From a virus (taxonomy: Duplodnaviria > Heunggongvirae > Uroviricota > Caudoviricetes), in the IMG/VR virus record IMGVR_UViG_2684623189_000005: a stretch of DNA of 64,000 nt. One strand, given 5' to 3'. The notes beneath the pieces were generated by a model that was given only the letters and a program-made list of their open reading frames with translations, searched no databases and was not told the DNA's origin. Shown piece after piece: positions 1 through 25,261 of this stretch (position 1 is the first letter of the stretch; each line of letters starts with the position of its first letter). The translations under genes were made by a program, and so were the position numbers.

Positions 1-177
1 AACCCAGTTGACCATAACGTTCTGTTGCACGGGTTAAAGCGTTCTGACGTTCCTGCAGGCGGCGTGAGGTATCGCTCAGGGAATCAAGCGCACGGCGGGT
101 ACCGCTCATTGCAGAACGGAATGTGCTGCCAATCATCCCGCCGATAACAACGCCGACTGAAAACTGTCCCGACATAG
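1..177 (-). CDS. tail tape measure protein, N-terminal fragment (gene runs past window start)
   Basis: Minus-strand ATG at 175-177 preceded by GGAGG; translation MSGQFSVGVVIGGMIGSTFRSAMSG... is typical of tape-measure N-termini; lies just after the chaperone genes. Confidence 0.55.
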
Positions 178-250
178 TGGTTAACCTCCGGGGAAGGTGA
201 AAAGACGTGAGGGGATAACGCAGAACAGCCGCTACTGGCGGCTGTCTGTA

Positions 251-508
251 CTATGATTTGTCGCCGTACTCGCTTTTGATTTGCTCTTCAGCCTGCTCCA
301 GCCACATCTCCAGATCGTCAGTATCGAGGGCATCAATCTCCCCCGGCTGAAACCGGAACCATCTCGCCAGCAGCCCCTGCGCCTGCGTCAGCGCCCTGGT
401 TGCTCTCACCCATCCCCGTGATGAGCTGAAATCGTTTCTGTAACTGCAGGTAATCAGCCAGATCCATATTGTCGAGATCTTCCGGGAGAAGACCAGTACT
501 GCGGGCAA
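251..508 (-). other. -1 frame extension ORF of the tail assembly chaperone (putative programmed frameshift product, analogue of P2 E+E')
   Basis: ORF in another frame overlapping the 3' half of chaperone gene 333-668 with no start context of its own; expected architecture between tube and tape measure. Slippery heptamer not found. Confidence 0.4.
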
Positions 509-668
509 TCAGCGGTTCGTCCCAGTCTGCCGGGTTTTTGCTGATTTTGCGCACCTGCTTCAGGTCTTTTACCGTCAGGCGTTTCAGTTCAACCAGCTCA
601 ATTCTGGTGCCTGCAGCAGTGGTGAAGGGATAAGACAATTTAAAAGTATCGGATGGGGTCTGTGACAT
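333..668 (-). CDS. tail assembly chaperone (P2 gpE / Mu gp41-like)
   Basis: 111-aa ORF between tail tube and tape measure; overlapping alternative-frame ORF downstream is typical of frameshifted chaperones. Confidence 0.5.
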   Translation of the reverse strand: MSQTPSDTFKLSYPFTTAAGTRIELVELKRLTVKDLKQVRKISKNPADWDEPLIARSTGLLPEDLDNMDLADYLQLQKRFQLITGMGESNQGADAGAGAAGEMVPVSAGGD

Positions 669-765
669 GATTGTGCTCCTGTGTAAGTTCAGGGCAGTAT
701 GTCGGGAGAAGCGCGTGACGGATATTAAAGGAGATTAAGAAGAAGGGGCCGGAGCCCCTGTGATG

Positions 766-1047
766 TCAGCAAGTGCGAAACCCCTTGCAGTTACGCAGGA
801 AAGCGATGAGAAGCGTCTTTCCCTCAGATTTGCCGATGCCGGAGAACCAGTGGTCGGGAGGCTCCCATGCTTCAATCAAATCCGCCAGTTTGCGGGCCTT
901 TGAACGTGTGCAGTCAATCGGGTCATTGGTTTTACGGGTATTAAAAAGGGTTTCCACCCCCGGAATATCAAGGAGGGTAAACCACGTACCATTTGACATG
1001 CCCAGTGCCGCACATCGTCCTCCTTTATCCGTCAGTTCAACACTCAC
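766..1047 (-). CDS. hypothetical small protein (GTG start, uncertain)
   Basis: 93-aa ORF filling the 380-bp gap between tube and chaperone; starts with GTG right after the tube stop; no recognised homology. Confidence 0.25.
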   Translation of the reverse strand: MSVELTDKGGRCAALGMSNGTWFTLLDIPGVETLFNTRKTNDPIDCTRSKARKLADLIEAWEPPDHWFSGIGKSEGKTLLIAFLRNCKGFRTC

Positions 1048-1049
1048 CG

Positions 1050-1571
1050 TCAGCCCCCGATATTGATACGGTAGTCAGTCAGTTGATCAACACCGCCGAC
1101 CCGGAAGATGTTGGCCAGATAGTCCAGTTGCAGCAGCTCTTCACCATCCAGTACCTGTCTGATATACGTGCAGGTGAAGCTACTGGAGAACTCGGCGTTC
1201 TCGTGCTGTTTGAACGTCCCCAGCGGGTTCTTCTTGAACATAATCGTCAGGAAGGTGACCAGCGGGATTTCGTCAATCAGCCCCTGCGAGCTGTAGCGCT
1301 GGACGCTGGAACGACACTGCAGTGCCAGCGACCTGTACGGGTTCGCGGCAGACAGCATCGCATCGCGGTAAAAGCTGTTCCATTTGATTTCGCCTTCCAG
1401 CTTGTCAAAACCAGCCGGGAGTTCCACCTTACCCACCATCCCCAGCGCCTTGTGTTCCTGCATAATCATGGAGACATCGGGGAGTTTGACTTCCTCAGCC
1501 CGTCCCAGCAGGTTAGTACCATCCAGATAGATGTTGGCATTCGTGATGCGGTTTATCTCAATCTTTGACAT
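1050..1571 (-). CDS. phage major tail tube protein (contractile tail, P2 FII / Mu M-like)
   Basis: 173 aa immediately downstream of sheath gene; N-terminus MSKIEINRITNANIYLDGTNLLG... resembles tube proteins. Confidence 0.75.
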   Translation of the reverse strand: MSKIEINRITNANIYLDGTNLLGRAEEVKLPDVSMIMQEHKALGMVGKVELPAGFDKLEGEIKWNSFYRDAMLSAANPYRSLALQCRSSVQRYSSQGLIDEIPLVTFLTIMFKKNPLGTFKQHENAEFSSSFTCTYIRQVLDGEELLQLDYLANIFRVGGVDQLTDYRINIGG

Positions 1572-23217: not shown

Positions 23218-23897
23218 CAGACCAGAATAAACACATTGAGAAACTGAAAAAGTTGCTGGCGCTGGCCGCATCCGGCAACCCGCACGAGGCCGCTCTGGCA
23301 CTGCGCCGAGCCCGTAAACTGATGGATGTTCACGGCATCACACATTCCGACATTGCTATGAGTGATATTGATGAAACCATCAGTCATTACTGGCCGACAG
23401 GCAGTCTCCGTCCACCGCGCTACATGCTGGGCCTGATGAACATCATCCGCGAGGCATTTGGTGTTAACTCCATCATTCACCCCGGCACGCATCCGTCTGT
23501 GGGGTTCTACGGTAACCGGGAACGAGCGGCACTGGCTGCGTACACCTGGGAAGTGCTGGTCCGCCAACTGAAAAAGGCGCGTCAGCAGTATATCAGCGCA
23601 CAGAACAAAAGAATAAAAAACGCCACCCGTACCAGCCGTGGAAACCAGTTTGCTGAAGGCTGGGTACTGGCCGTTATCAGTGAAATACAGTCCTTTGCCC
23701 TGACCGATGATGAGCGTGAACTGATGCAACAGTGGCTGGAACATAAATACCCGCAAACGCAAACCACCAGGGCGCGTAAACCGGGAAGAAGCCGCAATGG
23801 CGACGCCTCGCGCTATGCGGGGTTTCGTGAAGGGCAGAACGTCAGACTGCACCGCCCGGTCAGTGGGCAGGAACAACAGAAACTGGAGGCCAGATGA
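23214..23897 (+). CDS. hypothetical protein (DUF2786-like N-terminus)
   Basis: ATG overlaps upstream stop (ATGA); MTDQNKHIEKLKKLLALAASGNPHEAALALRRARKLM.... Confidence 0.45.
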   Translation: MTDQNKHIEKLKKLLALAASGNPHEAALALRRARKLMDVHGITHSDIAMSDIDETISHYWPTGSLRPPRYMLGLMNIIREAFGVNSIIHPGTHPSVGFYGNRERAALAAYTWEVLVRQLKKARQQYISAQNKRIKNATRTSRGNQFAEGWVLAVISEIQSFALTDDERELMQQWLEHKYPQTQTTRARKPGRSRNGDASRYAGFREGQNVRLHRPVSGQEQQKLEAR

Positions 23898-24124
23898 TTA
23901 CGCTATCAGGTAACAGCCGGAAATTAAAAGCCTGCCGAATATCTGCCAGATACCTTTTTGCCCGCGCCTTTTTTAAGAACGTCAGGCCGGGGATCACAAT
24001 TGGTGTTATTGCCGGACGCGAACAGGTTGAAAAATACATGTCAGGTGCATGGTGGAATAACGACCCTGTCATTGCTGCCCGTAATATTCATATCAGTTGG
24101 GGGGATATTCAGAATGACGGCTGA
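23894..24124 (+). CDS. hypothetical small protein
   Basis: 76-aa ORF overlapping neighbours at both ends. Confidence 0.35.
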   Translation: MITLSGNSRKLKACRISARYLFARAFFKNVRPGITIGVIAGREQVEKYMSGAWWNNDPVIAARNIHISWGDIQNDG

Positions 24125-24329
24125 ATCTGTTGTATGTGCCCTGTTCTGGTATTGTTTTGCCGGTTGGTGTACTGCTGAACTGCACCGCCGTTCAGGGTTT
24201 TATTCACGTTACAGTGGTGCCGGCTACTGGATTAGCTGGTCGGTGATGTTCCTGTGCTGGCCTGTGGCGCTTCCTTTATATGTCGATTATATCGGTGGCG
24301 CAGGTAAAAGGAGCAACGATGATGACTAA
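24114..24329 (+). CDS. small membrane protein
   Basis: Internal ATG overlapping the upstream stop; MTAESVVCALFWYCFAGWCTAEL... is hydrophobic. Confidence 0.35.
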   Translation: MTAESVVCALFWYCFAGWCTAELHRRSGFYSRYSGAGYWISWSVMFLCWPVALPLYVDYIGGAGKRSNDDD

Positions 24330-24771
24330 ACAACGTCTTATCCAGCTCATTCATATTGCCCGTAATGAACTGGGTATGGATGAAGACACCTACCGCCAGA
24401 TGTTACAGGGGCTGACCGGTAAAGCCTCAACCAAAGGAATGGATACCACACAACTAAACTGCGTGCTGGAATCCATGAAAAGGAAAGGCTTTCGCGTTAA
24501 GCCTGCCGGAAAAGCCAGCTCCGGTTTACCGCTGGATAACCATCCGCAGTCCAGGAAAATCCGTGCGCTATGGCTTGAAATGGCTGCTGCCGGCATTGTT
24601 CGTGACCGTTCAGAAAATGCATTAGCGCGGTGGATCAAGCGGGAAACGGGCATCAGCGCCCTGCGCTGGCTCAATACTGAACAGGCAAGCAGTGTTATTG
24701 AGAAACTGAAGAAGTGGCAGCACAGAGCTGCGGGAGTAAAACATGAGCGACCTGAATCAGTTTCGAAGTAA
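24319..24771 (+). CDS. gemA: GemA-like protein (Mu gp16 family)
   Basis: About 150 aa immediately upstream of Mor, as in Mu; SD AAAGGAG before tandem ATGs. Confidence 0.55.
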   Translation: MMTKQRLIQLIHIARNELGMDEDTYRQMLQGLTGKASTKGMDTTQLNCVLESMKRKGFRVKPAGKASSGLPLDNHPQSRKIRALWLEMAAAGIVRDRSENALARWIKRETGISALRWLNTEQASSVIEKLKKWQHRAAGVKHERPESVSK

Positions 24772-25132
24772 AGGGCCGGAACTCCTGGTGGAACTGGCAC
24801 AGCATACCTCTGAGACCGTTCGCGAGATTATTGATATTGAGCCCGCAATTGCCGACCAGATTGGTCAGGCCGTCGCGAACCGCATGATGCAGGTCTGGGG
24901 CGGGCAAAACGTTTATTTCCCGATGGGCATGGTATGGAAGGTCAGTCAGCGCGACCGGGAAATCTTCAGGGAGTTTAACGGACGTAACCACCATGAACTG
25001 GCCCGCAAATTTGGTGTTTCGCTTCAGTGGGTCTACAGCGTGGTTAAGCGGGTAAGAAAAGAAGAACTGGATCGGATGCAGGGCAAGCTATTTGCTGATG
25101 AACCCGATGTAGATACGGAGAAAAAAGAGTAA
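24743..25132 (+). CDS. mor: Mor-family transcriptional activator (Mu middle operon regulator)
   Basis: 129 aa; C-terminal region FNGRNHHELARKFGVSLQWVYSVVKRVRK matches the Mor/C pattern. Confidence 0.7.
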   Translation: MSDLNQFRSKGPELLVELAQHTSETVREIIDIEPAIADQIGQAVANRMMQVWGGQNVYFPMGMVWKVSQRDREIFREFNGRNHHELARKFGVSLQWVYSVVKRVRKEELDRMQGKLFADEPDVDTEKKE

Positions 25133-25221
25133 TATCTGCAATCAGGCTGGAGCGAGTTCTGTTTTTTTCGGGCCGGTCTGATTTTCACATACTGTAAGGT
25201 TATTGCATATTCCTCCTGGTC

Positions 25222-25250
25222 TCTTCCCATTTTGACCCAGTTCTTCCCAT
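25222..25250. repeat. two direct copies of TCTTCCCAT about 20 bp apart in the mor-J spacer (possible terminal transposase-binding repeats)
   Basis: Seen in the 130-bp gap between the Mor stop and the lambda J stop, where a Mu-like end would be expected; speculative. Confidence 0.25.
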
Positions 25251-25261
25251 AAATATCTCAC

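Follow-up and report, generated by a model that had tools for sequence, protein, structure and literature searches.

Introduction

The BcepMu-like viruses carry their genes in two opposed clusters with lysogeny control at the interface between them, and have a Tn552-IS1604-type transposase and a terminal CA (Lavigne et al. 2009, PMC2771037). The inverted early operon by which B3-like phages differ from Mu is a known organisation (PMC5977238), and for phages whose transposase is related to that of Tn552 two genomic organisations have been described (Toussaint and Van Gijsegem 2017, as cited in PMC5977238). In the annotated genome of BcepMu itself, genes 1-16 run in one direction and encode a Mor/C-like protein, GemA, an ExeA-like transposition protein, a Tn552/IS1604-type transposase and helix-turn-helix (HTH) proteins; genes 17-52 run in the opposite direction and comprise the repressor, a membrane protein, two small genes, holin, endolysin, Rz/Rz1, terminase, portal, head, P2-like tail and tail fibre. 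Here we analyse a 64,000-nucleotide (nt) stretch of viral DNA (record IMGVR_UViG_2684623189_000005), referred to as the window, whose left part is occupied by a Mu-like transposable prophage that runs up to J, the tail-tip gene of a lambdoid prophage. The original prediction for this DNA, made from the letters of the window, had offered two explanations for the divergent early and late arms of the element, i.e. a naturally divergent lineage of the BcepMu type, or an inversion or assembly join.

The 64-kb window is one prophage nested inside another. We consider it highly probable that the 3' part of J in a resident, iss-carrying lambdoid prophage was the target of a BcepMu-type myovirus prophage, with a Tn552-like rve transposase and an AAA+ partner ATPase, which transposed there with a 6-bp duplication of CCCCAC, and that the back-to-back layout of this element is the normal one for the family.

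Organisation of the element

The element has two opposed gene clusters, and the interface between them holds lysogeny control and then the lysis cassette. The operons were assigned with the help of Escherichia phage PhiKM and of the prophage of E. coli LC-1302-2020, both described below:

1-14054, minus strand: late operon (tblastn to BcepMu genes 21-41, in the same order and at 31-76% amino acid identity; PhiKM and LC-1302 annotations; Pfam families of identical genes)
14680-16815, minus strand: lysogeny operon (HTH_31/HTH_3; GC 43-48%)
16866-25132, plus strand: early operon (Pfam; tblastn to BcepMu; RefSeq annotation of the identical prophage)

This is the arrangement that had been predicted: the open reading frame (ORF) map and family scans place the late genes leftward to the start of the window (from ~14054-14102), the ORF map and Pfam place the early operon rightward over 16866-25132, and the repressor region lies at the centre, with the HTH repressor gene (16354-16815, minus strand) at the interface. 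When BcepMu was compared with the window by tblastn, 27 of the 38 window ORFs had matches that follow the BcepMu order exactly in mirror image, the early and late sets lying on opposite strands; examples are the sheath (76% amino acid identity), the transposase (69%), the ATPase (59%) and Mor (54%). Only seven window ORFs matched Mu (TerL, portal, F, G, Gam, GemA and Mor), and there the relative orientation of early and late genes is the opposite one. BcepMu gave no megablast-level nucleotide match to the window, the protein identities found by tblastn being 31-76%.

The transposase contains rve as its only Pfam family, is 68.7% identical over 98% of its length to BcepMu gp09 and had zero tblastn match to Mu A at E<=1e-3, i.e. 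it is of the Tn552-IS1604 type and not a MuA. Searches by tblastn with Mu Mor, Mu C and BcepMu gp01 returned one Mor/C-family locus in the whole element and one in BcepMu, which bears out the earlier claim that a second such gene is missing; judged by these searches, the single Mor/C gene is a family trait.

Divergent arms would also arise if one arm of a Mu-like prophage had been inverted in this strain, and the layout is indeed unlike that of Mu, where every gene but the repressor runs one way. However, the same layout is found in BcepMu, PhiKM, Klebsiella phage KP12 and 96 complete E. coli genomes, both ends of the element carry the subterminal repeat architecture of the family at the expected tips, and the organisation is described in the literature (PMC2771037); we give such an inversion practically no credence. 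The back-to-back arms are the normal architecture of the family, and neither an inversion nor a mis-join is needed to account for them. Of the two explanations first offered, the naturally divergent lineage is upheld by the direct comparison with BcepMu and by the published description (PMC2771037), while the inversion or assembly join is contradicted by a gene order collinear with BcepMu, PhiKM, KP12 and the 96 genomes, and by a junction that falls at the terminus of the element and is present on six contigs (see below). By its transposase, its opposed clusters, its termini, its short target duplications and its head and tail genes, the element is a BcepMu-type transposable phage. It is not Mu proper, as its transposition proteins, the one-strand gene order, the two-step Mor/C cascade and, from established knowledge of Mu, the 5-bp duplication all fail to fit.

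Insertion into gene J

The boundary between the element and the lambdoid prophage was resolved into the following features:

1-25293: BcepMu-type transposable prophage, the right ~25.3 kb of ~35.95 kb (the right 70% of ~36 kb), identified by matches to PhiKM, LC-1302-2020 and BcepMu
25133-25293: right transposon end, with the terminal ...TCA at 25293 (...TAATCA; CTCAAGTCTAATCA), placed by alignment with the prpR insertion and with intact UTI89 J
25294-25299: right copy of the target-site duplication CCCCAC, found once in intact UTI89 J and beside the left end in the far-side contig (L017)
25294-28495, minus strand: 5' 3202 nt (codons 1-1067 of 1160) of the lambdoid tail-tip gene J, 100% identical to UTI89 gpJ from the start codon to the break
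25262-28495, minus strand: chimeric ORF of 1077 amino acids, i.e. J codons 1-1067 followed by 10 codons and a stop from the phage end; its translation is WP_077817333.1

The gene for gpJ in UTI89 is 3483 nt long and the window J is cut 281 nt before its stop, so that it is not an intact gene (1067 of 1160 codons are left). The stop at 25262-25264 is a chance stop in the phage end and not J's own. This changes the earlier picture of the boundary, in which mor ended 130 bp from the stop of J and the element ended at 25261, abutting J. The distance to the stop of the J-like ORF is indeed 129 nt, but the stop belongs to the phage end; alignment with the prpR insertion and with intact J puts the true end of the element at 25293, and J is not abutted but interrupted, its last 281 nt being absent in comparison with UTI89. 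The interruption of J accounts for the lack of the genes beyond it in the window; across the insert, they should be found ~10.7 kb past the left edge. In the UTI89-type lambdoid lineage there is no lom and stf directly follows J. The previously noted absence of lom, stf and attR from the window is therefore correct in that no stf or att site lies to the left of J, but lom would be missing from this lineage anyway.

The exact 1077-amino-acid truncated-J ORF (WP_077817333.1) is present on six contigs from several assemblies, one of which is 5.06 Mb; the right junction has therefore been assembled repeatedly and is not an assembly artefact. The left junction was predicted from UTI89 and the LC-1302 left end as the remainder of J through CCCCAC and then TGATGCGCCGCGCGATAAATG. 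Under simple insertion it should read GTTTTCATGCTTAC CCCCAC TGATGCGCCGCGCGATAAATG, and ORFs spanning it were looked up by exact sequence. A predicted 44-amino-acid ORF exists exactly (KAA2085992.1), its first 14 nt coming from J and the duplication and the remainder from the phage left end. It lies on a 927-bp contig of GCA_008389335.1 that contains stf, the J 3' remainder, CCCCAC and then TGATGCGCC; UTI89 (stf N-terminus, intergenic region and J 3' remainder) and the phage left end account for bases 1-804 and 805-927 of this contig, respectively, each at 100% identity. The far phage end and its target duplication, which the original prediction proposed to look for beyond the left edge, are thus both on this contig of another assembly, together with stf; lom, also to be looked for there, is lacking in the lineage. 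Three of the four candidate ORFs across the predicted left junction were absent from the protein collection, and a 46-amino-acid J-tail candidate was present but lies wholly within J, its listing giving no link to this insertion. The empty site reads gcttac-CCCCAC-gaaacag, the left junction gcttac-CCCCAC-tgatgcg and the right junction, in the window, taatca-CCCCAC-gaaacag. This three-site pattern around CCCCAC is the signature of simple transposition.

Several points weigh against the reading given at the outset. The left junction was seen in GCA_008389335.1 and the right junction in GCA_037080195.1, i.e. in different assemblies, and the former is not the window's own far side. An exact-pattern scan of species-representative genome contigs, among which the source strain is not included, found neither the predicted left nor the observed right junction, and this J insertion is in no complete RefSeq E. 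coli genome. The regulatory steps proposed below (operator and Mor-dependent late promoters) draw on analogy and on one consensus match, and no convincing late-promoter motif was shared by the gaps upstream of the holin gene (14055-14184) and the protease gene (6583-6796).

The absence of the junction from complete RefSeq genomes would also suit a mis-join, in which the adjacency of the element and J belongs to a chimeric contig; moreover J-like genes are repeated (at a median of 2-3 places per genome), and repeats can cause mis-joins. Against this, the break lies exactly at the terminal CA of the transposon, the phage end and J have no common sequence, the identical junction ORF is carried by those six contigs, including the one of 5.06 Mb, and the reciprocal junction with the matching 6-bp duplication occurs in another assembly. 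A mis-join is extremely unlikely. That the left junction is known from another assembly and not from the window's own copy would fit an insertion after which transposition rearranged the window's genome by an adjacent deletion or inversion, with the distal lambdoid genes lost or moved, and transposable phages cause such events, as is established for Mu. However, a related assembly contains the left junction of a simple insertion with the matching duplication, and an intact copy elsewhere has 99.96-100% identity to the part of the prophage that the window contains; such a rearrangement is very improbable. Simple transposition into J remains the reading that we follow below.

Element ends and target duplications

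The matches to the element in the 96 complete genomes end at window positions 25293-25297. The right end contains two subterminal repeats, CATTTATC (25273-25280) and CATAAATATC (25248-25257), at positions 14-21 and 37-46 from the tip, with the same spacing as in the left end and in both BcepMu ends. The left tip reads TGAT-N9-GATAAATG-N15-GATAAATG and the right tip TGAT-N9-GATAAATG-N15-GATATTTATG; the BcepMu tips read TGAA-N9-GATATTTC-N15-GATATTTC at the first end and, as the reverse complement, TGAA-N9-GATATTTC-N15-GATAAATT at the other. The element is thus bounded by TG...CA termini with subterminal repeats, and each end presumably offers two transposase-binding sites.

In LC-1302 the same prophage splits prpR. 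When the empty site was rebuilt with a single CGTCGG it aligned to intact prpR as one uninterrupted piece of 142 nt at 100% identity, and from this it follows that the element makes 6-bp duplications and has TG...CA ends. There are therefore 6-bp duplications at two sites, prpR (CGTCGG) and J (CCCCAC), as expected of an element that uses many sites with a short duplication.

A homologue search with the junction ORF returned ~100 distinct small chimeric ORFs that join host DNA to the left end, in E. coli, Salmonella, Klebsiella and Shigella. They share the C-terminus DAPRDKCTLSCAINGIHAAFHYLKKNYISGCVMTVPTG(W), which comes from the phage left end, and differ in N-termini, which come from host DNA; the host parts of some have phage-associated domains (Phage_tail_U, NinE, antiterminator Q and DUF1327). 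Many of these left-end ORFs are named 'glucosamine-6-phosphate deaminase' in NCBI records, and are insertion-junction artefacts. The J insertion is one of many sites for this phage.

Identity and spread

In a megablast search of phage records, PhiKM (PQ738613) was 98% identical in nucleotides over 90% of window positions 1-25000, and Klebsiella phage KP12 and phage Phi06_2974 B matched at ~86%. GenBank taxonomy puts PhiKM in the genus Bcepmuvirus, which is the source of the genus label of the element. The part at 14000-25293 is carried by at least 96 complete E. coli genomes, several at 100% (e.g. LC-1302-2020, where it is in prpR, IAI39 and CE10). Positions 1-14000 are 99.96-99.99% identical to the LC-1302-2020 prophage, an ISEc23 in that copy aside, and over all shared parts the two prophages are 99.96-100% identical in nucleotides. 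With its tail-chaperone protein recorded in 37,760 blocks of the public assembly index, the prophage type is very common. Neither the layout nor the phage is new, and the element, near-identical to deposited prophages and to one isolated phage, is an ordinary feature.

Outside the window lies the left ~10.7 kb of the element, i.e. the rest of the tape measure gene, the baseplate, an invertible tail fibre, a Gin-like recombinase and the left end. The Gin-like recombinase is present in the E. coli members of the phage group (L002, 38619-41244; L008, L010 and L014, near 18300-20336), and at their left arm the tail-fibre and Caudo_TAP genes occur in alternative orientations, an arrangement that resembles the invertible host-range segment of Mu. 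The ISEc23 of the LC-1302-2020 copy (L002, 21400-24060) is a 2,540-bp member of the IS66 family between the Mu G-like and protease genes, and is absent from the window copy. In the circularised PhiKM record (L001, 14099-14441), 343 bp annotated as 'Fe2+ ABC transporter permease' lie between the right and left phage ends and match neither end of the LC-1302 prophage. The most likely source of this stretch is host DNA taken up in packaging, as would be expected if the phage is transposable, and it gives no more than a hint of replicative transposition and of random host DNA at virion ends.

The resident lambdoid prophage

From 25294 rightward the window is 100% identical to the UTI89 lambdoid prophage over the stretches compared (25294-27300 and 40000-64000). 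The lambdoid remainder to 64000 contains the head genes, the lysis cassette, iss, an ompC-like porin gene, Q, replication genes, cI/cro-like genes and the red genes, and closes at the right edge with xis and int. The C-terminal part of J is where lambda has its receptor-binding determinants. The lambdoid prophage should no longer be able to make infectious particles, because its J lacks the last 93 codons (the extreme C-terminus) and because ~36 kb have been added between its ends.

Gene content of the two arms

The late arm encodes a Mu-like head and terminase and a P2-like contractile tail, with the Pfam families Portal_Mu, Phage_Mu_F, Phage_sheath_1, Phage_tube, P2 GpU, GPD, Baseplate_J and Tail_P2_I. 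Its genes in the window are on the minus strand:

13704-14054, minus strand: holin
12961-13701, minus strand: SLT endolysin
12327-12977, minus strand: Rz-like spanin (PHROG)
11148-11693, minus strand: TerS
9556-11151, minus strand: TerL
8060-9556, minus strand: portal
7258-8079, minus strand: Mu F-like protein
6797-7255, minus strand: Mu G-like protein
5467-6582, minus strand: protease/scaffold
4499-5452, minus strand: major head protein
1571-2998, minus strand: sheath
1050-1571, minus strand: tube
333-668, minus strand: tail chaperone
continuing past the left window edge, minus strand: tape measure gene

The holin gene probably starts at the ATG at 14054 rather than at the TTG at 14102, following the RefSeq annotation of the identical prophage. 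The early arm contains:

16866-17054, plus strand: small HTH protein in the position of Ner
17107-17415, plus strand: IclR-like HTH protein
17426-18340, plus strand: DUF3102 protein
18344-20113, plus strand: rve transposase (69% amino acid identity to BcepMu)
20124-21290, plus strand: AAA_22/ExeA-type transposition ATPase (59% to BcepMu)
21590-22120, plus strand: Gam
23214-23897, plus strand: DUF2786 protein
24322-24771, plus strand: GemA (44% to BcepMu)
24743-25132, plus strand: Mor-family activator (Pfam Mor, E 1e-43; 54% to BcepMu)

Interface and proposed regulation

The stretch between the arms has a GC content of 43-48%, against 55-60% elsewhere in the GC profile, and contains:

16790-16818, plus strand: early-promoter-like site, TTGACA-17-CATAAT, matching the consensus at 11 of 12 positions
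16354-16815, minus strand: HTH repressor, 38.5% identical to the BcepMu gp17 repressor
15371-16357, minus strand: 328-amino-acid membrane protein, with a weak Flk_N match, whose start overlaps the stop of the repressor gene by 4 nt
14699-15289, minus strand: 196-amino-acid Gly-rich membrane protein
14680-14697: terminator-like hairpin closing the lysogeny operon
14185-14661, plus strand: 158-amino-acid P-loop ORF, accessory and convergent (phrog_3787, E 2e-107, covering positions 1-157 of the 242-position profile)

Within the spacer of the promoter-like site we read a perfect 8-4-8 palindrome, ATGAGAAC-AATA-GTTCTCAT, which overlaps the annotated start of the repressor ORF and is a likely repressor operator. 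The genes at the repressor-to-lysis position (14185-16357) differ between PhiKM, BcepMu and the window prophage, i.e. this is a mosaic hot spot. None of the three cargo proteins (328-amino-acid, 196-amino-acid and P-loop) has a Pfam or PADLOC family, the P-loop ORF giving sub-threshold AAA matches only, and the membrane-protein cargo falls only in PHROGs of unknown function. One could speculate that these low-GC genes beside the repressor (14185-16357) form an uncharacterised superinfection-exclusion or anti-phage module and, separately, that insertion into lambdoid prophages is recurrent and selected as competition between prophages rather than incidental; taken jointly, we think these two ideas unlikely to hold.

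By analogy with related phages, the element probably works as follows. The repressor gene and the HTH gene in the Ner position would be transcribed divergently from an operator-bearing control region near 16.8 kb, where the repressor (16354-16815) would shut the early promoter (putative site 16790-16818), and the repressor would be co-transcribed with the two membrane proteins as far as the hairpin at 14680-14697. On derepression, the early operon would supply the transposase and ATPase for replicative transposition, which is predicted for this copy from the protein families, as headful packaging would be. Gam, GemA and, last, the single Mor-family activator would be made after the transposase and ATPase. 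Late promoters upstream of the holin gene (14055-14184), and perhaps also upstream of the protease gene (6583-6796), are presumably direct targets of this activator, so that the leftward lysis, head and tail operon would be turned on in a one-step cascade, as against the Mor-then-C cascade of Mu.

Implications for annotation

Records of the region should describe it as a BcepMu-type transposable prophage nested in a lambdoid prophage; otherwise it has little significance. WP_077817333.1, the 1077-amino-acid 'host specificity protein J', should be marked as the product of a disrupted gene. Taken together, the junction ORFs may serve as a ready-made catalogue of insertion sites for a very common E. 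coli prophage. From the nesting it is predicted that, in this lineage, the lambdoid prophage with iss is unable to form infectious particles.

Comparison with known systems

Mu (NC_000929) has the lifestyle of a transposable myovirus and the terminal CA in common with the window element, and its homologues of TerL, portal, F, G, Gam, GemA and Mor are 29-62% identical in amino acids. Unlike the window transposase and ATPase, to which they have no detectable relation by tblastn, Mu uses MuA and MuB; the early operon in the window is inverted relative to the late genes, and Mu has two Mor/C-family genes where the element has one. The target duplication of Mu is 5 bp, whereas that of the window element is 6 bp. 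The Pseudomonas B3-like phages (JBD25, JD18 and others) have a transposase with 57% amino acid identity to that of the window; they are siphoviruses with different tail genes according to the literature, and have an early operon inverted relative to that of Mu (PMC5977238).

BcepMu (NC_005882, the type of Bcepmuvirus) and phiE255 have in common with the window element the opposed clusters, the repressor at the interface, a Tn552-type rve transposase, an ExeA-like ATPase, the single Mor/C activator, a lysis cassette with an SLT endolysin, a Mu-like head and P2-like tail genes. The tips of BcepMu are likewise TG...CA, and its two subterminal repeats occupy positions 14-21 and 37-44. BcepMu differs from the window element in the middle early genes (e.g. 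Gam in the window) and in the cargo after the repressor. The E. coli relatives have a Gin-like recombinase and an invertible tail-fibre segment, whereas BcepMu was reported to be without an inversion system (PMC2771037).

The closest systems are PhiKM and the E. coli prophages of LC-1302-2020, IAI39 and CE10. PhiKM has a different central region, which encodes a Dam methylase and lacks the minus-strand repressor, and carries one more small ORF ahead of the transposase gene; the insertion site in the window, a lambdoid J, is other than in the PhiKM/LC-1302 relatives. In gene order, element ends and 6-bp duplication, PhiKM and these prophages are the same as the element in the window.

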